This document shows, in pieces, positions 1,736 through 26,547 of a stretch of 64,000 bases of DNA (within the stretch, counting starts at the first letter, position 1; every line of letters begins with the position of its first letter). Origin of the DNA: Nitrososphaerota archaeon (lineage in GTDB: Archaea; Thermoproteota; Nitrososphaeria_A; Caldarchaeales; Calditenuaceae); the NCBI GenBank assembly GCA_038845265.1, contig JAWBQR010000003.1, positions 72,667 to 136,666 of the forward strand, read 5' to 3'. The translations under genes were made by a program, and so were the position numbers. Below the pieces are notes generated by a model, which saw only the letters and a program-made list of their open reading frames with translations, ran no database searches and was not told where the DNA came from.

Positions 1736-1918
1736 TCTTAGGCACTCCTGCTTGATTCATACTTCTTTTGGCTATAAATGTTTTGCATATCTAAAAGAGA
1801 TTAAGCGAGACCGTGGCGTATGCATTAATTAATCCTATTTAAGCTGGGCTGCTATCATTTTCCAAATTCTCTGCATTTCTGGAGTTCTCTCTGCGATAAC
1901 CCCTTTCGTAGAATTTAG

Positions 1919-2003
1919 TGCGGGGGGTGGGATTTGAACCCACGAACCCCTGCGGGACAGGAGCCTCAGTCCTGCGCCTTTGACCAGGCTTGGCGACCCC
2001 CGC
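1919..2003 (-). tRNA. tRNA-Leu (anticodon GAG), class II with long variable arm, no encoded CCA
   Basis: Reverse complement folds as acceptor GCGGGGG/CCCCCGC, anticodon stem CAGGA/TCCTG with loop CTGAGGC, long variable arm, and T-arm GGGTTCAAATCCC. Confidence 0.8.
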
Positions 2004-2038: not shown

Positions 2039-2051
2039 GCTCTATACTTAA

Positions 2052-2762
2052 ATGTTATCCTTGTTGGGGTTTAATAGGGAGTATTTGGTGCGGAAGTTTA
2101 TTTTTTGGCTGAGCATTGCGTTGGTTATTGTCTTCTTAGTGTTTTTTGGGATGTGGATGGATTTTAACGAGGCTCAGAGCTCTATCTTGAGATGGATGAG
2201 GAGTGATCAAGGACTGCTTGATGGATTGTTCTGGATTGCTGATAATACTGGTAGCGACGTGGTGATTATTGCTTGGTGGGACTACGGGGTGGGAATAGAG
2301 GAGATAAGTCATAGAAGAGTAGTGATTAGTGAGGCCTCTAGGGAGATTAAGTGGACGATTGCTGGAATGAGGAAATATCCATGGAGTTGGATAGAGTATG
2401 AGTTGTGGTATCCATTCGAGTCTGATGAGAGGGTAAGAGACGTGGGCAGATTCTTTAGTGCGGAAGACGCATCAGAGGCCATAGAGATAGCGAGGAAATA
2501 CGGCTCTGAATATGTCTTCGTCGTCTATCCAGACGATATAATGAAATTTTACGCAATGGTTATGGCAGCCGGCAAGCAGCCAAGTGAATATCTCGGAGAG
2601 TCTAAGGCAGATACAGAGGAAGAAATGATCAGGGAGATAGAGAGCCGCGAGATAATAAAAAAGGAGACCATCGGTATAAGACTGATATATGGAGACGATA
2701 CGGAGGGCTTCGAGAAAGTATTTGATAATGGCAGAGTTAAAATATACAAGATAATAGAATAA
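2052..2762 (+). CDS. Stand-alone AglB/STT3 C-terminal-domain protein: one N-terminal TM helix plus WWDYG and DK (DDIMKF) motifs, no polytopic catalytic domain
   Basis: 236 aa. One TM (IFWLSIALVIVFLVFFGMW), then ...VVIIAWWDYGVGIEE... and ...EYVFVVYPDDIMKFYAMV..., which resembles the STT3/AglB ...YVLV..DDINKFLWM.. block. Confidence 0.6.
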   Translation: MLSLLGFNREYLVRKFIFWLSIALVIVFLVFFGMWMDFNEAQSSILRWMRSDQGLLDGLFWIADNTGSDVVIIAWWDYGVGIEEISHRRVVISEASREIKWTIAGMRKYPWSWIEYELWYPFESDERVRDVGRFFSAEDASEAIEIARKYGSEYVFVVYPDDIMKFYAMVMAAGKQPSEYLGESKADTEEEMIREIESREIIKKETIGIRLIYGDDTEGFEKVFDNGRVKIYKIIE

Positions 2763-2768
2763 GAATGG

Positions 2769-3479
2769 CTACTCGATTATGAATCTTTTTGGTTTGGGTA
2801 TGAGGAAACTGGGCATTTTTTCCTCGAATTTCTTTATCTCGTCATCATATAGTGAGAGCGTGATTGATATGTCATCCAGACCCTTAACCAAGCGCTCCTT
2901 TATGTGCTGTTCAATCTCGAATCTAATTGATTCGCCTGTCGAGGTTGTTATCGTCTGTTCGGATAGATTAATGGTGAGGTAGAGCCTGCCCCCACGCGCC
3001 AGCTCTCTAAGGTTCCTAACCTTCTCTTGAGGCAGCCTAATGCATAGTAGCCCATTCTTAGAGGCATTGACGTAGAAGATGTCTCCGAACGATGAGGCGA
3101 TTATGCTCTTGATTCCGAAATCCATGAGCGCCCAGACCGCGTTCTCCCTAGAGGACCCGATGCCGAAGTTCTTTCCAGCTATCAATATGGATGCGTCCCT
3201 GAATTCTGGCTCATCGAGGATAAAGCCGGGCTTCTTCGAGCCATCTTCATTATACCTCCATCTATAGAAGAGATACTTACCTAGCCCTTTCTTCTCTATT
3301 ATCTTGAGGAACTCGGCTGGAATTATTTGGTCAGTATCGACGTCGTCAGCCTCTAATGGTGCAGCCTTTCCATGAATTACTCTTATTGGTTCGGGCACTG
3401 GTATTTCACCTCCACGGCTCCTCCAGCCTTGCGTTATGCTCGATCTCGCATAGGTCTGCCGGCTCAATCTCTCGAACAT
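2769..3479 (-). CDS. leuD: 3-isopropylmalate/(homo)aconitate dehydratase small subunit
   Basis: Aconitase swivel-domain motifs (…DDVDTDQIIPAEFLK…, …AGKNFGIGSSRE…). The true start may be downstream of the ORF's first M, because it overlaps leuC by 74 nt. Confidence 0.8.
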   Translation of the reverse strand: MFERLSRQTYARSSITQGWRSRGGEIPVPEPIRVIHGKAAPLEADDVDTDQIIPAEFLKIIEKKGLGKYLFYRWRYNEDGSKKPGFILDEPEFRDASILIAGKNFGIGSSRENAVWALMDFGIKSIIASSFGDIFYVNASKNGLLCIRLPQEKVRNLRELARGGRLYLTINLSEQTITTSTGESIRFEIEQHIKERLVKGLDDISITLSLYDDEIKKFEEKMPSFLIPKPKRFIIE

Positions 3480-4860
3480 CGATGAATCTCCCCTCTATTG
3501 CCGCTGCAGCGGCCATTGCCGGGCTGACTAGGTGGGTCCGCCCACCTGGGCCCTGTCGGTTCTCGAAGTTTCGGTTCGAGGTGCTGGCGCACCGCTCGCC
3601 AGGCCTGAGCCTGTCGGGATTCATGGCGATGCACATCGAGCAGCCGGGATACCGCCATTCGAATCCTGCCTCGATGAAGATTCTGTGGAGCCCAATCCTC
3701 TCCGCCCTCCTCTTTATCAGCATGGAGCCCGGCACGACCATCGCCCTGACGCCCTGCTTAACCCTTCTGCCCTTCACGATCCTCGCGGCATCGATTAGGT
3801 CTGAGAGCCTCGCGTTAGTGCATGAGCCTATGAATACGACGTCTATCGGTATCTCGGTTATCTTCGTTCCGGGCCTGAGCCCCATGTAGCTCAGCGCCCT
3901 CTCGACCAGCAGTCTCTGAGCCCTGTCCTCATAATCTTCCGGCGAGGGAACCTCGCCCGTGATGCCTGTAGTCATTGCTGGATTTATCCCCCAGCTAACC
4001 TGCGGCTCGATTCTCGAGGCATCAAAGACATACCTGGCGTCGTATTCGGCGGATGAATCTGTCTTAAGACTTGACCAGTACTTGACTGCTTCTTCCCATT
4101 CTTCTCCGTCTGGCGCGTATGGAGCTCCCCTGAGGTATCTGAAGACTTTCTCGTCTGGCTCGATGATTGCTGTCCTTGCTCCGCCCTCTATCGACATGTT
4201 GCAGAGCGTCATCCTGGACTCGACTGATAGCCTCCTAGTGAGTTCTCCTGTGAATTCTACTACGTGTCCAATCATGCCTCCTGTTCCTAGGTGTTTGATT
4301 ACGTAGAGGATTACGTCCTTTGCTGAGACTCCTCTCTGTAGGTTTCCCTCGAGTCTAATCTCCATCTTCTTCGGCCTCTTCAGCCAGATTGTCTGCGTCG
4401 CGAAGACGTGTTCTCCCTCGCTCGTGCCTATTCCGAATGCAAGCGCCCCAAGCGCTCCATGCGTGCTTGTGTGGCTATCTCCGCATACCAGCGTTATTCC
4501 TGGAAGCGTCAGTCCCAGCTCCGGACCTATGACGTGTACGATTCCCTGCCATGGGCTGTGGTAGTCAAAGAGCGTTATGCCGTGCTCAGCTGCGTTTCTA
4601 GCGAGGGCCCTCATCTGCGCCGCTGAGAGCTCGTCAGTCACTGGGTGTGACCTATCAGTAGTGGGGACGTTGTGGTCCATCACGGCGAAGGTCAGGTCCG
4701 GCCTCCTTACTTTTCTCGACTTTTCTCTAAGTTCCTCGAAGGCTACTGGCGAGGTCACTTCATGTGTCAGGTGTCTATCAATGTAGAGTAATGCTTGTCC
4801 ATCTTCCCTCTCCGCGATTACGTGTCCCTCCCAGATCTTCTCAAATATGGTCTTAGCCAT
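3406..4860 (-). CDS. leuC: 3-isopropylmalate/(homo)aconitate dehydratase large subunit
   Basis: 484 aa, aconitase-family catalytic domain with Cys ligands (…GSCTNARL…, …CSMCIAMN…). Confidence 0.85.
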   Translation of the reverse strand: MAKTIFEKIWEGHVIAEREDGQALLYIDRHLTHEVTSPVAFEELREKSRKVRRPDLTFAVMDHNVPTTDRSHPVTDELSAAQMRALARNAAEHGITLFDYHSPWQGIVHVIGPELGLTLPGITLVCGDSHTSTHGALGALAFGIGTSEGEHVFATQTIWLKRPKKMEIRLEGNLQRGVSAKDVILYVIKHLGTGGMIGHVVEFTGELTRRLSVESRMTLCNMSIEGGARTAIIEPDEKVFRYLRGAPYAPDGEEWEEAVKYWSSLKTDSSAEYDARYVFDASRIEPQVSWGINPAMTTGITGEVPSPEDYEDRAQRLLVERALSYMGLRPGTKITEIPIDVVFIGSCTNARLSDLIDAARIVKGRRVKQGVRAMVVPGSMLIKRRAERIGLHRIFIEAGFEWRYPGCSMCIAMNPDRLRPGERCASTSNRNFENRQGPGGRTHLVSPAMAAAAAIEGRFIDVREIEPADLCEIEHNARLEEPWR

Positions 4861-4928: not shown

Positions 4929-5087
4929 TTAACTCGATGCGTAGCGCTTGGGGTCTTTCTCGAATATTTCCTTGCATGCGGCTGAGCAGAAGTAGTATTT
5001 TCTGTGCTGGTAGTCCGAGACATATTTTGCTGTCTTCTCATTTACCAACATGCCGCAGACTGGGTCCCTAGCCATGCCTAGGGGCAT
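4929..5087 (-). CDS. Small YHS/TRASH-domain metal-binding protein (52 aa), absent from the ORF track
   Basis: Own translation: MPLGMARDPVCGMLVNEKTAKYVSDYQHRKYYFCSAACKEIFEKDPKRYASS. The DPVCGM…YYFCS..C pattern is the YHS/TRASH signature. Confidence 0.6.
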   Translation of the reverse strand: MPLGMARDPVCGMLVNEKTAKYVSDYQHRKYYFCSAACKEIFEKDPKRYASS

Positions 5088-12732: not shown

Positions 12733-13959
12733 TTATTGACAGGCTGTTTCATAGAAGTATGGTATCGAAGATATTGTAGGCCTATCGATTAAATAATCAC
12801 ATGCATCAAACGAGTAACCAGACTGGAAAAGCCTAATAGTTCTCAACAGATAGAGAACAAATTGTATTAGGAATGAAAAGATAACAAAGTTACACAGATA
12901 CTTATTCTTTGATCTTAATTCTTTTAATCCCTGACCAACCATGTATGGCATTACTGGCAATAAATATGCTGTATGCCTAAAGAAGTCAATGTCACCTTTC
13001 AAAAATAAAAGTCCTACTGCAATAAATAATCCCAGAATAAACTGATACTTAACCGTGCTGTCCAGCGAATTAAAACGCTTAAGTACAAAAAATATCGGTA
13101 ACAATATTGCAAACGCAATTAGATTTATTGCCACTCTGAGAATAATCGTAATCTCGTTTGTAGCAATTACTGGTAATTTTACAAATGATAGATAAGAAGC
13201 GACATCATGAGCAGTAATCTCCCATGGGAGTATAGATGATAATACTGTCATGACTGCTCTATAACTTTCAATTGGCGTAGGAATGTGGGGCTGAAAATCA
13301 GAATAAGAATTACCTTCACTCATTGCAATATATGAATAATAAGTTAGTAATCCAATTATCCATCCACAAAACATTAACAATGTTGCCATTCTCAGCGACC
13401 TATCACCTTTGATATGATGTAAAACGATGAGGGTGGTAACGAGTAAGGGGAGGAAAACAAAAGCCGTCTCTCTGGTGAGGACCATTAAAAGAGGCAACAA
13501 AAGTAACAAGATATTCATAGATTTATTTCTATTCCTAAAAAGAATCAATAATAATGCCGTATTTAATAATGCAGTAAGAGCATCAACATAGGTACGTGAA
13601 AACAACAAATAAATCGGGGGCCATAATAAACCAACTAAACCAATCCGAGAAACAGTGTCTCGAATCATATGTACTTGAAGAAAAATGAAAATAATTAGTA
13701 AGCATGCAAGAATGACTTTATAGTAATTCCCTGTTATAGCTAACAAAAAATAATATAACGGAGCCCTTACGCATAAAGACATAGAATCTTTGGTACAGAC
13801 TGGGTCGTAAGCAAAGCCAGTCTTCCGCATAACCTTACTCGTCCAATAAACAACAGCTGGGTCACCATATAGAGGAGAAACAAAAATCAGAAATATAACA
13901 CTGATAATGTAAGTAAATAATGTGAATACTTGATAAATATTATCGTGGCTAAGCCGCAC
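12733..13959 (-). CDS. Polytopic (~11-12 TM) membrane protein, possibly a GT-C-type (PMT_2/ArnT-like) glycosyltransferase
   Basis: 408 aa, very hydrophobic, ~33% GC. No diagnostic motif is certain. Confidence 0.3.
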   Translation of the reverse strand: MRLSHDNIYQVFTLFTYIISVIFLIFVSPLYGDPAVVYWTSKVMRKTGFAYDPVCTKDSMSLCVRAPLYYFLLAITGNYYKVILACLLIIFIFLQVHMIRDTVSRIGLVGLLWPPIYLLFSRTYVDALTALLNTALLLILFRNRNKSMNILLLLLPLLMVLTRETAFVFLPLLVTTLIVLHHIKGDRSLRMATLLMFCGWIIGLLTYYSYIAMSEGNSYSDFQPHIPTPIESYRAVMTVLSSILPWEITAHDVASYLSFVKLPVIATNEITIILRVAINLIAFAILLPIFFVLKRFNSLDSTVKYQFILGLFIAVGLLFLKGDIDFFRHTAYLLPVMPYMVGQGLKELRSKNKYLCNFVIFSFLIQFVLYLLRTIRLFQSGYSFDACDYLIDRPTISSIPYFYETACQ

Positions 13960-22797: not shown

Positions 22798-23781
22798 TCA
22801 AACCACCTGGTCGATGAACTGAGTCAAGACGGCAAGTATCGAGGAGTATAAGCAGACTATTCCCATGTAGATGGCGATCTGAACCTCGCTTCTAGGCCTA
22901 TCAGCTGCAAGCATTCTGACTAATGTGAGAGGAGCGGCTGGGCTTAGATTTGACAATATTAAGTTGCCTGAGACCTTAATAGGTCTAGTAATGACTTGTT
23001 TACCTGATTTAAGGCCCCTCAATGAGACAAGGACATAAAACTCATTCATTATATGTGGAATTAAGGCAATGATTGCCACTACTTCAAGCCTAGAGGTGAT
23101 AGCGATTCCAGCAATAACCGCTCCTATCAAGTTGCTGCCAGCGTTTCCACTAAATGCCCTCGCAGGGCACCAGTTGTATTTCAGGAAACCCAGCATAGAG
23201 GCGACAAGAATCATTGCCATCAATGAGACATCTGTTTTATTATTCATTATTGATAGTCCTGCCAACGTTAATAGTGGTGGAAGACTTGTAAGGACAAGTG
23301 ATCCGTTGACGACGTCTAGACTATTAACAGCGTTCGTTACGATTGTATAGGCAACTAACACAAGTAATGGATAGAGTATCGTGATTCTGACCTGTCCTAT
23401 GAACGGAAGGATCGGCCTAGGTTCATAGAGCCCGAGAAACACTATGGGAAGACCCGGCAATATGAGCAATAATGGTTTTAGGATCGGGTTTAGTTCTCTA
23501 AAATCCTCAATTAATCCTATGATTGCAGCTATTGCAGGCGCTATTAAAAAAGGTACGATAAGGTCGTTTCTTGATAATATGAGGAATATTCCTGAAGCTG
23601 CTAGGTAAGTGATTACTATTGCGAGACCCCCTATGCGGGGAACTAAGGGGTGTCCGGGCTTATGCACATCTCTACCCAGTATTCCCCGTGAAAAAGAGAA
23701 CTTGATAATTAATTTAGTTAATAATAGAGATGAGATAAATGAGAGAAGGAATAAGCCCGCGAGTAGTATGATGTTCTCCAT
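22798..23781 (-). CDS. aglH: UDP-GlcNAc:dolichyl-phosphate GlcNAc-1-phosphate transferase (GT4, MraY/WecA/AglH family)
   Basis: …GLIEDF…, …VNSLDVVNG…, …PARAFSGNAGSNLIG… motifs in a 10-TM protein. Confidence 0.8.
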   Translation of the reverse strand: MENIILLAGLFLLSFISSLLLTKLIIKFSFSRGILGRDVHKPGHPLVPRIGGLAIVITYLAASGIFLILSRNDLIVPFLIAPAIAAIIGLIEDFRELNPILKPLLLILPGLPIVFLGLYEPRPILPFIGQVRITILYPLLVLVAYTIVTNAVNSLDVVNGSLVLTSLPPLLTLAGLSIMNNKTDVSLMAMILVASMLGFLKYNWCPARAFSGNAGSNLIGAVIAGIAITSRLEVVAIIALIPHIMNEFYVLVSLRGLKSGKQVITRPIKVSGNLILSNLSPAAPLTLVRMLAADRPRSEVQIAIYMGIVCLYSSILAVLTQFIDQVV

Positions 23782-23880: not shown

Positions 23881-24933
23881 ATGGACGTTTGGGTAGACAT
23901 CCTCACACCGAAACAAGTATTGTATTTCTGGCCAGTCGTAGAAAAACTTAGAGACAAGGGCCATGAAGTATTAGTTACCGCACGGAGGTATGAACAGCTT
24001 GACTGGCTGATCAGCAGAATTAATCTGGATATAAAGGTAATAGGCGAGTTTGGAGGAGAGACACTATACGGCAAGCTCCTATCAAGTACTAGGAGACAAC
24101 TCGAACTACTAGAATTATTCAGAGAAGATAAGCCTAGAATTGTATTATCGAGCGGCTCAATAGAAGCCTCCAGGATTTCATATGGATTGGGAGCGCGGCA
24201 TATATTGGCTTCAGACACTGTTCACTCACCAGTGAATAGAATATGTGTTCCACTATCTGAATTAATCCTGACTCCACGCTTTATTCCAATAAAGGAGTGG
24301 CTGAGATATGGTGCAAAAAAAGGAATGATTAAGAGATATAGATCTCTCGATCCAGTCGCATGGATGAAGAGAATAAGTACTTTTCAGGAATCTTATATGG
24401 AAATTGACTTGCCGGAAAATTATATATTGGTAAGGACGCCGGAGAGTAAGGCATCATACATTCTTGGTAAAGGACTAGAGGAGGTAATTAAACTAATTAA
24501 CATTATTACAAAACTTGAAGAATACAGCATAGTAGTGTTGACAAGATACAGAGAAGAAGCTAACCTTATTAGAGAAAAATTGCCCAAAGGCATAATTATA
24601 ATTGAGAAGCCTATATTAGCTATTCCATTAATTAAAAAAGCGAGCCTTGTTTTATCAGGAGGCGGAACAATGACTCAAGAAGCAGCGCTCCTAGGTAAAC
24701 CTACAATAATGTTTTATCCTGGAAAACTTCCAGCCGTGCATAGATTCCTAGCTAGGTTAGGACTAATAAAGAGGATTCCACCAAGCATGCTTCATAGGGT
24801 TCCCTATATTGCTGCTCAACTATTATCCGAAAAATCGAAAAGTAAACTCGCCGCAAAAGCTGAAAAATTAATGAGGACACTCGAAGACCCAGCTGAGTTT
24901 ATTTATCGATATGTTAATTCACTTCTGACATAA
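23881..24933 (+). CDS. DUF354-family protein (predicted glycosyltransferase-like, archaeal)
   Basis: N-terminus MDVWVDILTPKQVLYFWPVVEKLRDKGHEVLVTARRYEQL… matches the DUF354 consensus (MKIWIDI..P.H..FF…GHEV.ITAR). Confidence 0.55.
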   Translation: MDVWVDILTPKQVLYFWPVVEKLRDKGHEVLVTARRYEQLDWLISRINLDIKVIGEFGGETLYGKLLSSTRRQLELLELFREDKPRIVLSSGSIEASRISYGLGARHILASDTVHSPVNRICVPLSELILTPRFIPIKEWLRYGAKKGMIKRYRSLDPVAWMKRISTFQESYMEIDLPENYILVRTPESKASYILGKGLEEVIKLINIITKLEEYSIVVLTRYREEANLIREKLPKGIIIIEKPILAIPLIKKASLVLSGGGTMTQEAALLGKPTIMFYPGKLPAVHRFLARLGLIKRIPPSMLHRVPYIAAQLLSEKSKSKLAAKAEKLMRTLEDPAEFIYRYVNSLLT

Positions 24934-26547
24934 TTCTCTGAGAGTATCCTCTATGCTTAATAACTTGTCATAAGCGTATCTCAAGTCTTTTCTGAATGAA
25001 TCATATATCTTCTTGTAGCTTTGCTGGCTTAATTCACCTTTCTGAAAATCTGTATAATTCCTCAGAATTACTCTCAATGCCTCACTAAGCACACCTAACG
25101 ATGAGTTTATCTCCTTTGTTGTTTCCTGTATCTCGATTGTTTTTTCCTCTAGTTTTTCAATCGAGTTTATAACTTCATCAGCAATTCTGCGCACAACGTG
25201 TACCTTATCAGTCATAACTTGCGGTCTCGTCTTTACAGCCGTGGGGGATAACCCATTCTCGATCTCCAGTAATATTGATCTCAACTTTTGTAATTCTTGT
25301 ATAGCTTTTGAAATTGTCTGTAAATCCTTTTGACTTATTATCTTAGTCCGCGGAAACTTACCGCGGATTACCTGCAATACGATGGCACTTAATATTATGA
25401 CTACAAAGCCTCCGCCTATGATCCAAGAGGCAAGAGAAGCTGAGCTAGACGACTTGACCAATGGAAGAGTGATGTAATTGTTTTGATAGATATTTAGTTC
25501 TCTGCTCTCGATTCTTGCGATAGCTGCTCCAGCCTCGTCGTGATGATATTCAGCAACATTTGCATTTGTCATATCAACTTCGTATCCGGCTGGAAGAATT
25601 ACAGAAATACTCAATGAACCGACTGTTGCATTTATTGGTGTGAAGAGTAATATCTTCACTTCATCGTCATTTATGTACATTGTTTCTGGTGTCTGGCATT
25701 TTGCCAAAATTGTGAATGTGTATCTCCACGAGTTTTGGAGGGCATATCGTGACTGTTCAAGATTGACAGTGAGTATATTTTTTTCTTTGCTCCATGAGTA
25801 GGACAGCTTACCTAGAGTGTCTCTTACTTCCTTTACTTCAATTCCATTGGGAAAATTTAGGTCCAACTGTCTCAGCAAGCTATTAGCTTGGTTCTTTATC
25901 CTCATCGTTATGACTATAATTGATTCTGAAGGCTCATAAGTCATGTCAAGACTTTCAACATGAATTAGAGATATTCCACTCGAGATTAGCCTAATTCTTA
26001 TCGGATCTGGAATCGTATCACCAGAAATCGTGATGTTGTTTTTCTCTAATCCACGATTAGTTAGTGTCCAGTCTGAGGGGGCACCCGGATATCTAACGTA
26101 ACTCGTTGATGAGAAGAGTATATTTGCATGGACAGTCTGTCCCTGAATTAAGGGCTCAGCATTTATGACTAACTCGTAGTTATTTCCTCCCGCATCATAT
26201 ATTAATTCTCTATAAATTGCTGTAATTATCAAATCCGTCGACTTGGGGTTTATCTCATAAATGTATAGTCCCGACGGTGACTTTTCTATGAATTTGCTTT
26301 CCCCGCCATTAACTACGAGTTGAACAAGTCGGTTATGCATCTCTTCAACTATTCCAAACCTAAAGCTATCATCCGCTCCGTGAATCTTATCTACCACATA
26401 TACCAGGCCACCGTTCTCCGGAATGATAGTCCTATCAACCATAAGAACATTTTCCGGCCTAGCAGAGATAGGCATCAAGAAGATTAGCAATACCGCCAAG
26501 ACCACGATGATCGGAATCCTCAATTTCTTATCCAAAGCTATAATCAT
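24919..26547 (-). CDS. Type-I membrane surface protein: signal peptide, ~340-aa ectodomain with many N-x-S/T sequons, one TM, ~150-aa cytoplasmic coiled-coil tail
   Basis: Signal/TM MIIALDKKLRIPIIVVLAVLLIFLMPISA, TM …WIIGGGFVVIILSAIVLQVI…, helical K/E/L-rich C-terminus. Confidence 0.5.
   Translation of the reverse strand: MIIALDKKLRIPIIVVLAVLLIFLMPISARPENVLMVDRTIIPENGGLVYVVDKIHGADDSFRFGIVEEMHNRLVQLVVNGGESKFIEKSPSGLYIYEINPKSTDLIITAIYRELIYDAGGNNYELVINAEPLIQGQTVHANILFSSTSYVRYPGAPSDWTLTNRGLEKNNITISGDTIPDPIRIRLISSGISLIHVESLDMTYEPSESIIVITMRIKNQANSLLRQLDLNFPNGIEVKEVRDTLGKLSYSWSKEKNILTVNLEQSRYALQNSWRYTFTILAKCQTPETMYINDDEVKILLFTPINATVGSLSISVILPAGYEVDMTNANVAEYHHDEAGAAIARIESRELNIYQNNYITLPLVKSSSSASLASWIIGGGFVVIILSAIVLQVIRGKFPRTKIISQKDLQTISKAIQELQKLRSILLEIENGLSPTAVKTRPQVMTDKVHVVRRIADEVINSIEKLEEKTIEIQETTKEINSSLGVLSEALRVILRNYTDFQKGELSQQSYKKIYDSFRKDLRYAYDKLLSIEDTLRELCQK

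Follow-up and report, generated by a model that had tools for sequence, protein, structure and literature searches.

What might the sequon-recognition end of an oligosaccharyltransferase (OST) do when it is encoded by itself, apart from the membrane domain that performs catalysis? In OSTs the Ser/Thr found at position +2 of an N-x-S/T sequon sits in a pocket formed by the WWD of the WWDYG motif and the lysine of the DK motif, the second wall being supplied by either a DK or an MI motif; EL5 and further portions of the transmembrane (TM) domain complete the acceptor site. To our knowledge, descriptions of OST catalytic subunits have always had the membrane and WWDYG domains acting together on a single chain. 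The locus described here lies in a window of 64 kb (the whole stretch of DNA that was analysed) and encodes a small protein in which both motifs follow a single hydrophobic helix. A search of the literature for AglB C-terminal domains that stand alone or derive from truncation found nothing relevant.

The first-pass annotation, which was made from the letters alone, had placed the gene at 2052..2762 next to tRNA-Leu. The ORF listing and ARAGORN confirm this arrangement, with an open reading frame on the forward strand of 236 amino acids from ATG 2052 and a TAA stop at 2760-2762, but the start codon has to be moved. ATG 2052 falls within a TTAAAT box that is conserved in 3-4 relatives in the upstream alignment, the start codons of the relatives line up with TTG 2085 or GTG 2088 of the window, and the 98%-identical homologue P0001 opens with MRKF. 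The true start is therefore most likely TTG 2085 or GTG 2088, giving a product of 224-225 amino acids, and the box is a probable archaeal TATA element with a putative promoter role.

1918..2003, reverse strand: tRNA-Leu(GAG), the divergent upstream neighbour (ARAGORN)
2048..2053, forward strand: TTAAAT box, candidate TATA element of archaeal type (unchanged in all sequences when the window is aligned with three relatives, L048, L044 and L002)
2085..2762, forward strand: most likely reading frame for the single-pass STT3/AglB C-terminal-core protein (ORF listing, upstream-DNA alignment with L048, L044 and L002, homologue N-termini, dN/dS)

The tRNA gene, 48 nt away from ATG 2052, is context only and has no functional tie to the gene; the adjacency is retained in L048 and is absent from L001, L002 and L044 as well as from the ANME-1 and Methanothrix loci scanned.

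The protein itself can be divided into a membrane anchor and a globular domain, the latter carrying three conserved elements.

2097..2165, forward strand: single TM helix, residues ~16-38 in the 236-residue numbering (hydropathy, AlphaFold secondary structure)
2274..2288, forward strand: WWDYG motif, residues 75-79 (invariance; alignment with the WWDYG of STT3A/B)
2337..2423, forward strand: block SREIKWTIAGMRKYPWSWIEYELWYPFES conserved within this family, residues 96-124, located between WWDYG and the DK motif (invariant positions)
2535..2558, forward strand: canonical DK motif DIMKFYAM, residues 162-169, which fits DxxKxxx(M/I) (invariance; alignment with DDINKFLWM of STT3A/B)

In the AlphaFold model the TM segment belongs to a long N-terminal helix spanning residues 3-51, and an R and a K stand before the hydrophobic part, which predicts an N-in, C-out topology. 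WWDYG is contained in VVIIAWWDYGVGIEE (residues 69-83); downstream of it lies EYVFVVYPDDIMKFYAMV, D162 being found 87 residues past W75, and the DK region of the globular domain reads DDIMKFYAM (the consensus DxxKxxx(M/I) is taken from PMC3703281). A single N-terminal TM helix and two OST motifs some 85 residues apart were already recognised in the first-pass annotation, and hydropathy, the model and the measured spacing bear this out. The WWDYG motif is not a chance occurrence, since the relaxed pattern W[WYF][DE][YFW][GAS] matches only once across the six frames of the window and both motif regions are included in the family-profile alignments to STT3 and AglB. The polytopic GT-C domain of the catalytic subunits (GT66), with its ~13 TM helices and the DxD-type acidic residues and EL5 loop that serve metal, lipid-linked glycan and Asn activation, is not encoded in a reading frame of 224-236 residues with one hydrophobic helix.

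Homology to the OST C-terminal domain is detectable at the level of sequence and becomes clear with profiles and structure. A single-sequence HMM search retrieved STT3A (E 4.6e-4) and AfAglB's C-terminal domain (3vgp, E 5e-4), and a profile built from 26 homologues improved these values to 1.1e-9 for STT3B, 4e-9 for STT3A and 2e-6 for 3vgp and 3vu0, with yeast Stt3 also matched. The curated family models score well below their thresholds: PF21436 (STT3-PglB_core) gives 13.1 bits against a cut-off of 23 bits and TIGR04154 25.9 bits against 450 bits. The small protein is modelled with confidence (pLDDT 92.6, pTM 0.85), and the best 24 Foldseek matches are OST subunits or the related C-mannosyltransferase DPY19, STT3A reaching an E-value of 4.9e-9 and AfAglB-S2's C-terminal domain a target-normalised TM-score of 0.66-0.72 (3vu0). 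In the Foldseek results the alignments with human STT3A/B are 222-236 columns long and so presumably take in the long N-terminal helix; as modelled, this helix is the counterpart of the last TM helix of STT3. Profiles, model and fold search, the last of these showing a fold shared with OST C-terminal domains, thus uphold the original reading of a stand-alone AglB/STT3 C-terminal unit, and support the view that the small protein is a free-standing central-core unit of that domain. The block at residues 96-124 falls outside the STT3 alignments (profile positions ~86-123 are uncovered); its invariant positions among the 26 family members are S96, T102, I103, W111, Y116, L118, W119, Y120 and E123.

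A short gene that covers only the last quarter or so of a normal AglB and scores under the family thresholds could be a decaying aglB remnant, one of the options of the first-pass annotation, or what a faulty assembly has left of a longer aglB gene, namely its 3' end. Both are scarcely credible in light of the family. The ~220-residue architecture recurs at ~40 loci in genomes labelled Nitrososphaerota, ANME-1 and Methanothrix (200-260 residues, 26 protein clusters, independent assemblies), the close relatives being labelled Nitrososphaerota or Nitrososphaeria. W75, W76, D77, Y78, D162 and K165 are invariant in the 26 family members, and all full-length copies at these ~40 loci carry WWDY[AG]...DxxK[FY]xx[IMV] at a spacing of 87-90 residues. 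The gene is under purifying selection (dN/dS 0.10-0.12) and is present as a tandem duplicate at the ANME-1 locus L006. What lies upstream is the conserved promoter-like box and a tRNA gene rather than aglB sequence; the tRNA had already been cited against a broken aglB in the first-pass annotation. Selection, recurrent short architecture, invariant motifs at fixed spacing and the upstream box lead us to reject remnant and mis-assembly alike: this is a real, conserved gene. Nor is the small protein a recent truncation of a host enzyme, because Methanosaeta and Methanothrix have full-length AglBs of their own (PMC3703281; PMC9128505), and these carry a variant DK motif (PMC3703281) whereas that of the small family is canonical.

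If the gene is intact, the missing catalytic half could be supplied in trans. The small protein would then be one half of a split OST, docking onto a membrane-only GT-C protein that is either the product of 12733..13959, the candidate partner of the first-pass annotation, or a C-terminally truncated AglB encoded elsewhere in the genome. The junction between the last TM helix plus C-terminal core of STT3 and the remainder of the enzyme is a natural break point, and ORF 12733..13959 (408 residues, ~10 TM helices, no match in Pfam and NCBIfam searches) models confidently (pLDDT 90) as a GT-C enzyme without a large outer domain, its best Foldseek matches being PglB, ArnT, STT3A/B, ALG9/12, EmbA/B and AftA (probability ~1, TMq 0.44-0.53). 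The proposal holds as far as the fold is concerned; adjacency, distribution and context speak against it. A distance of 10 kb separates the two genes, which are encoded on opposite strands, and recognisable AglB sequence motifs are absent from the GT-C protein. Those members of its family (54 clusters) that have source names are all Nitrososphaerota or Aigarchaeota, none being named Methanothrix or ANME-1, whereas the small family also occurs in genomes with those two labels. The GT-C relatives lie in polysaccharide clusters amongst GT4s, a Wzx-like flippase, an epimerase and a nucleotidyltransferase, the 10 kb around them being free of small-protein genes, and no TM-only AglB fragment adjoins the small-protein gene at any locus. 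With neither co-distribution nor synteny confirmed among the clusters and loci compared, the case for 12733..13959 as the partner is weakened, and we regard a split OST in general as unlikely.

Gene neighbourhoods offer a different perspective. No aglB or agl gene adjoins the small-protein gene at ~50 loci, which argues against a dedicated glycosylation role, and glycosylation genes are absent from its surroundings throughout the clade of the window (the window, L001, L048, L002 and L044), in which leuD/leuC-like synteny is common to the window, L001 and L048 and differs in L002 and L044. Neither a second WWDYG gene nor a full-length aglB was found in the 64 kb, and the ANME-1 loci yielded no conserved neighbour. 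A ribophorin-like ORF had no sequence match in the PDB, and a metagenome scan returned an identical fragment only. At 24 Methanotrichaceae loci, by contrast, the orthologue (40-49% identical) follows a same-strand gene for a 148-residue HTH/CxxC protein, the sole conserved neighbour there, which has no Pfam match and a weak Tfx-like match only in NCBIfam. Distant relatives show comparable arrangements: P0035 and P0047 belong to three-gene operons in which a homologue of this HTH protein is followed by a 7-8-TM protein and the single-pass WWDYG protein, P0038 has a divergently oriented wHTH neighbour, and proteins of the P0061 type (also P0073, P0098 and P0131) combine HAAS, a polytopic region and the WWDYG domain, with PadR directly upstream in P0061.

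Among superfamily relatives, the recurring links are with transcription regulators and not with glycosylation genes.

These associations raise the possibility of an extracytoplasmic sensor, whose ectodomain would detect an outside ligand, for instance part of the envelope or stretches of secretory proteins that are unfolded or lack glycans, and signal to a transcription factor directly or via a membrane transducer. We consider this unlikely. No HTH homologue is found in the 64-kb window or adjoining the gene in L001, L002, L044 and L048, the cytoplasmic tail of a few residues provides no obvious signal route, and the HTH gene in Methanotrichaceae may be a mere local regulator of the small-protein gene.

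The small family belongs to a much larger group of single-pass WWDYG proteins, a superfamily without a name (584 clusters at E <= 1e-3), which we define by an N-terminal TM helix, an outer domain of ~170 residues, WWD[YF]G, a conserved Ser ~19 residues further on and a D/E...K/I motif; the small protein has every one of these features, and among the best 150 of the 584 clusters most members are 200-320 residues long with one TM helix. The W, W and D are kept in 121, 120 and 118 of 122 distant single-pass relatives, respectively, and the pocket position is occupied by K in 77 of them, I in 19, L in 7 and V in 4. The pockets of true OSTs show a parallel alternation, being of either Lys type or Ile type (PMC3703281). 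Relatives are fused to a cyclophilin PPIase, a PsbP-like or a lectin-like domain, which fits an extracytoplasmic binding module, and for some the fused or neighbouring element is an HTH regulator, PadR-HAAS, a PPIase or an MBL domain. The superfamily also overlaps the HaoB models: TIGR04392 is matched by 48 of the 122 distant relatives (best E 3.4e-23), and precomputed matches to PF27869 (HaoB_nitrify) exist for the family member P0022 and for P0035 and P0047. HaoB (TIGR04392/PF27869), listed by NCBIfam as the hydroxylamine oxidation protein HaoB and encoded beside the hydroxylamine oxidoreductase gene haoA in nitrifiers, is not known to have an assigned function, and literature searches for a link between HaoB and the OST domain found nothing relevant.

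HaoB brings to mind a third alternative, namely that the fold has been re-used apart from sequons, for binding glycans or lipid-linked sugars, in an envelope role such as sheath biogenesis, or in the maturation of exported proteins as maybe in HaoB. The HaoB matches are in keeping with this, as is the strongly conserved aromatic block at 96-124 that is specific to the family. Furthermore, the family occurs at 45-55% identity in Methanotrichaceae, ANME-1 and a single Nitrososphaerota lineage, a pattern like that of envelope genes passed on by horizontal exchange, and sheath proteins are reported to have been exchanged between Methanotrichales and ANME-1 (PMC11576556). On the other hand, the exact residues of the Ser/Thr pocket are kept, including the Lys/Ile alternation, for which retention of the ancestral ligand is the simplest explanation, and the gene context in the window shows no connection with sheath or hao genes. 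Re-use of this kind is improbable in our judgement.

The explanation that we favour, with a probability of about one half, is that the small protein is a non-catalytic single-pass reader of Ser/Thr-containing exported segments which acts as an adaptor or recognition subunit for another membrane component. The N-terminus would remain inside and the anchor would present the globular domain outside the membrane. The ectodomain retains WWD and the canonical DK lysine, the elements that build the +2 Ser/Thr pocket in real OSTs. As the catalytic TM domain is missing, with its ~12 additional TM helices and its acidic loops for metal and lipid-linked glycan, the small protein alone would be unable to transfer glycan; instead, on the outer side of the membrane, it would bind those parts of exported polypeptides that contain Ser/Thr and resemble sequons. 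The data described above show homology and fold, signals of topology, invariant motifs, purifying selection and a wide occurrence; peptide binding, and that a partner exists and what it is, are inferred. The isolated pocket may bind weakly, or bind another ligand, because the acceptor site of OSTs needs EL5 and further parts of the TM domain. Amongst the three options of the first-pass annotation (remnant, half of a split enzyme, accessory or decoy sequon-binding protein), the last is the best fit.

A conserved family that has kept the Ser/Thr pocket only, together with hundreds of related single-pass clusters, suggests that the pocket domain is an independent binding module. More speculatively, the sequon-recognition half of OST would have been released as a mobile reader, and the superfamily, probably including the HaoB of nitrifiers, would bind N-x-S/T-like segments of exported proteins outside the membrane, working in trans with GT-C enzymes as a two-chain OST in some lineages and wired to transcription factors in others for the surveillance of unglycosylated or unfolded secretory proteins; this broader scheme is tentative and rather doubtful. 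If a reader function is true, the family would provide a minimal, soluble-expressible system for studies of sequon recognition, a structural handle on HaoB and the prospect that archaea have readers of glycosylation sites which act in trans or in regulation. Should its role be no more than to stabilise an envelope component, the protein would add modestly to the known cases of domain re-use.

How does the small protein compare to known systems? Most of the relatives that match the HaoB model TIGR04392 are likewise single-pass proteins with an outer domain; the small protein itself aligns to that model across the WWDYG region with 16.1 bits (E 0.0064), far below the 200-bit cut-off, its host is an archaeon, and no hao genes were found near the gene, the neighbours being tRNA-Leu, an Rce1-like protease and aconitase-family (leuD/leuC-like) subunits. 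A further comparison is with HAAS-PadR pairs that have extracytoplasmic sensor domains. HAAS and PadR have been proposed to form a signalling dyad (bioRxiv 10.1101/2020.09.24.301986), and the HAAS proteins P0061, P0073, P0098 and P0131 carry the same WWDYG domain, whereas the small protein lacks HAAS, a cytoplasmic domain and a PadR or other HTH neighbour.

Human STT3A/STT3B (6s7o, 6s7t) and yeast Stt3 are the best profile and fold matches (1e-9 and 5e-9, respectively), and the similarity covers the last TM helix and the core domain, with motifs that are nearly identical (WWDYG shared, DDINKF corresponding to DDIMKF), albeit at an identity of only 17-18%; in contrast, STT3 has 13 TM helices and catalytic DxD and SVSE-type loops and is part of a multi-subunit complex, none of which is encoded here. 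The short AglB paralogues AfAglB-S1 and AglB-S2, whose C-terminal domains of ~160 residues have been solved (3vgp, 3vu0), differ in that the small protein is a separate gene with one TM helix, in the extra conserved block 96-124 that belongs to the small family, and in the DK motif, which is a variant with an insertion in AfAglB and the canonical DxxKxxx(M/I) in the small family. Both nevertheless display the same fold (Foldseek E 1e-7) over ~160-190 residues, with WWDYG and a DK-type motif on one structural unit.

The first-pass annotation had described a 236-aa ORF beside a tRNA-Leu, with a single N-terminal TM helix followed by a WWDYG and a DDIMKFYAM peptide, and all of these were found as described; only the ATG at 2052 is probably not the true start. 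The features concerned are the following:

1918..2003, minus strand (opposite to the window gene): tRNA-Leu(GAG)
2048..2053: TTAAAT box, overlapping the ATG at 2052 and unchanged in three aligned relatives
2052..2762, plus strand: window gene, 236 aa in the ORF listing
residues ~16-38 of the window protein: its sole hydrophobic helix, by hydropathy and structure model
residues 75-79: WWDYG
residues 161-169: DDIMKFYAM

In the upstream alignment the ATG starts of relatives fall on TTG 2085 and GTG 2088 of the window, and a 98% identical protein (P0001) begins MRKF; the product therefore probably comprises 224-225 aa, translated from a putative short-leader or leaderless mRNA. The two motifs are 87 residues apart (in 236-aa numbering), and translating the whole window in six frames gives just one match to a relaxed WWDYG pattern. 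Arg and Lys stand ahead of the hydrophobic helix, so a cytoplasmic N-terminus and an external globular part are expected.

Single-sequence searches gave matches to models of oligosaccharyltransferases (OSTs) that are individually weak but mutually consistent: Pfam STT3-PglB_core (E 0.14), TIGR04154 archaeo_STT3 (E 2.9e-6, model positions 534-636 of 831) and, in the PDB, STT3A (4.6e-4) and the Archaeoglobus fulgidus AglB C-terminal domain 3vgp (5e-4). The database search returned 26 homologue clusters of 199-263 aa, save for one 135-aa partial match, and none longer. W75, W76, D77, Y78, G81, D162 and K165 are invariant across the alignment of this small family, whose profile matches STT3B (1.1e-9), STT3A (4e-9) and yeast Stt3 as well as the AglB C-terminal-domain chains 3vgp and 3vu0 from A. 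fulgidus (about 2e-6), aligning to STT3 in distinct stretches over the WWDYG and the DK regions (profile consensus DDILKF versus DDINKF). An AlphaFold2 model built from the homologue alignment (pLDDT 92.6, pTM 0.85) consists of a long N-terminal helix (residues 3-51) and an alpha/beta domain, and its top Foldseek matches in the PDB are exclusively OST catalytic subunits: human STT3A (4.9e-9) and STT3B (1.1e-8) over 222-236 aligned columns, and AfAglB-S2's C-terminal domain (3vu0, 1e-7; target-normalised TM 0.66-0.72). Next in rank stand yeast Stt3, 3vgp and AfAglB-L, followed by the related C-mannosyltransferase DPY19 and, more weakly, PglB. Together the profile, model and fold-search matches confirm the earlier assignment to a stand-alone AglB/STT3 C-terminal domain, the protein being predicted to correspond to the last TM helix and the central-core unit. 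It is homologous to that unit and shares its fold, it lacks the catalytic membrane domain, and the residues aligned with the +2 Ser/Thr pocket of real OSTs are strictly conserved in the small family.

A genome scan yielded 37 loci matching the small protein, two of them marginal matches to a short stretch (one labelled Desulfurococcaceae). The remainder come from MAGs that bear the labels Nitrososphaeria (68-71% identity), ANME-1/Methanophagales (48-56%) and Methanothrix/Methanotrichaceae (40-53%), with a few further loci labelled 'Halobacteria' or 'Methanomicrobia'. All full-length copies carry WWDY[AG] and DxxK[FY]xx[IMV] at a spacing of 87-90 residues, and comparison of the window gene with its orthologues in L001 and L002 places it under purifying selection (dN/dS 0.10-0.12, at a dS of 1.5-1.8 that is near saturation). 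The selection and the fixed motif spacing lead us to reject the suggestion that the gene is a remnant, which we regard as scarcely credible. Canonical AglBs are documented in Methanosaeta/Methanothrix species (PMC9128505, PMC3703281), and a variant DK motif containing an insertion is described for AglBs from the Methanomicrobia, Archaeoglobi and Halobacteria classes, in a set that includes three full-length Methanosaeta thermophila proteins (PMC3703281). In contrast, the small family, its Methanothrix members included, has the canonical, STT3-like DxxKxxx(M/I/V) and thus did not arise by recently truncating the AglB of a host.

The family (loci L001-L037) spans Methanotrichaceae, ANME-1 and one Nitrososphaerota lineage, with identities of 45-55% between phyla. 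Both Methanotrichaceae and ANME-1 are sheathed and are reported to exchange sheath-protein genes (PMC11576556), and this exchange, with the cross-phylum distribution, suggests horizontal transfer and a putative envelope-related role. The ANME-1 locus L006 (G60 MAG) holds two tandem paralogues (3416..3988 and 4163..4750) that share 55% and 50% identity with the window protein, indicating a lineage-specific expansion.

The window gene lies between tRNA-Leu and an Rce1-like protease on one side and convergent aconitase-family (leuD/leuC-like) genes on the other, its stop 6 nt from that of the leuD-like gene. L001, labelled Nitrososphaeria, is collinear with the window through the small gene and the leuD-like, leuC-like, YHS-type, bPH and ECF/ABC transporter genes; L048 (69% identity) retains the tRNA and the leuD/leuC-like genes; the neighbours in L044 and L002 differ. 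No aglB or agl gene adjoins the small gene in the ~50 loci examined. At 236 aa as listed, the leuD-like ORF (2769..3479, minus strand) shares 74 nt with the 3' end of the leuC-like gene (3406..4860, minus strand) and exceeds the orthologue called in L048, which has 209 aa; the true start of the window ORF is thus probably further downstream. Beyond the leuC-like gene, the small ORF at 4929..5087 is of YHS type and is followed by a bPH_2 membrane protein, an order kept in L001 and L048.

The first-pass annotation had also listed, as one of three options, a split OST with a GT-C-like protein as a possible partner:

12733..13959, minus strand: 408-aa polytopic ORF with ~10 TM helices

This ORF has no sequence match in Pfam, NCBIfam or the PDB. 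Its model (pLDDT 90, pTM 0.89) finds its best fold matches among the GT-C enzymes PglB, ArnT, STT3A/B, ALG9/12, EmbA/B and AftA (probability ~1, E 6e-3 to 0.5, TMq 0.42-0.53), so the 'GT-C-like' guess was right. It shares 99% identity with a protein whose given name is 'Nitrososphaerota archaeon' and belongs to a family of 54 clusters, sharply bounded in score, with source names confined to Nitrososphaerota and Aigarchaeota and with the invariant motifs PxYGDP, RTYxD, RE and KGDxDFxRH; by sequence and model this appears to be a GT-C family not yet described. The partnership itself is unsupported: the two genes lie 10 kb apart on opposite strands, the small family also occurs in genomes labelled ANME-1 and Methanothrix, and two GT-C relatives, sitting in polysaccharide-biosynthesis clusters with GT4s and a Wzx-like flippase, have no small-protein gene within 10 kb. 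That the window protein is half of a true split OST is accordingly improbable.

Elsewhere in the window, a 541-aa ORF (24919..26547, minus strand) combines a signal/anchor helix with an outer region some 350 aa long, a TM helix at ~376-394 and a helical C-terminal tail, and matches Pfam Ribophorin_I marginally (25.9 bits against a threshold of 25, E 6.7e-6). It has no PDB or NCBIfam match, and a metagenome scan gave just an identical fragment. Its neighbours (22798..23781, minus, and 23881..24933, plus) encode a GT family 4 protein (AglH/Alg7-like, E 8e-30) and a DUF354 protein. Among archaea, ribophorin homologues have been reported in Asgard lineages (PMC8993221); a genuine one in Nitrososphaerota would therefore be noteworthy.

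The reading we prefer, at a probability of about one half, is that the window protein is a non-catalytic reader or adaptor in a general sense. Its ectodomain would bind Ser/Thr-containing, sequon-like peptide segments at the outer membrane face and, as the isolated pocket covers just part of the OST acceptor site, would probably act together with another membrane component.

Regulator genes beside relatives would fit a sensor coupled to transcription. Directly upstream and on the same strand in 24 Methanotrichaceae loci lies a 148-aa HTH/CxxC protein (76-100% identical among them), the sole conserved neighbour there (L011 9405..9848, for example). Its homologues lead three-gene operons around two distant relatives, P0035 (on an archaeal contig) and P0047, in the order HTH, 7-8-TM protein (~280 aa), single-pass WWDYG protein; in L043 (8666..10813) and L050 (5704..7708), where such an uncharacterised 7-8-TM protein stands between the HTH and WWDYG genes, start and stop codons overlap, and the two 7-8-TM copies are 40% identical. 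The HTH protein, of 148-168 aa and with weak Tfx-like or sigma-region-4-like similarity, always precedes the WWDYG gene, and together these genes seem to form a conserved module of two or three members. HAAS proteins with a polytopic part and a WWDYG domain also exist (P0061 and others) with PadR upstream, at P0061 immediately so and overlapping its start; such a PadR-HAAS arrangement has been proposed as a signalling dyad (bioRxiv 10.1101/2020.09.24.301986). P0038 has a divergently oriented wHTH neighbour. All this support comes from relatives, however: no HTH, PadR or wHTH arrangement surrounds the window gene or its closest relatives, and the 64-kb window holds no HTH/CxxC homologue. We consider a sensor role possible but rather unlikely.

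Searched exhaustively with the profile, 1.84 billion representatives yielded 584 clusters at E <= 1e-3 (128 at <= 1e-10); most of the best 150 of the 584 are proteins of 200-320 aa that carry a WWDYG motif and, at the N-terminus, exactly one TM helix. Among 122 of these distant relatives, 56 match the C-terminal portion of archaeo_STT3 in NCBIfam, the HaoB model (TIGR04392, best E 3.4e-23) matches 48, and Pfam PF27869 'HaoB_nitrify' is precomputed on P0022, P0035 and P0047; HaoB is therefore probably an OST C-terminal-domain homologue. Fusions among relatives P0027-P0175 and at L055 3624..5485 to metallo-beta-lactamase (P0055, P0058, P0129), cyclophilin PPIase (P0141), PsbP-like (P0114) and lectin-like (P0095) domains, and possibly to an M50 protease, give the WWDYG domain the appearance of a mobile extracytoplasmic module. 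Re-purposing of the window protein's fold for another ligand or envelope role is quite unlikely in our estimate. Across the 122 relatives the W/W/D residues persist in 121, 120 and 118, and the Ser equivalent to S96 in 113.

The OST C-terminal domain itself is well known. Its free-standing single-pass architecture has been recognised only implicitly, JGI auto-annotation naming some small-family members 'Stt3' and HaoB models covering one superfamily branch. Our literature search found no paper on stand-alone OST C-terminal domains and none linking HaoB to OSTs; nor, to our knowledge and in the literature covered, has the architecture been presented as a module derived from OSTs. The window gene is solidly real and conceptually interesting, its function a prediction from sequence and model. 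At the pocket position equivalent to K165 the 122 relatives have Lys (77), Ile (19), Leu (7) or Val (4), and the superfamily thereby resembles true OSTs, whose DK and MI pockets are defined by the same Lys/Ile alternation (PMC3703281).
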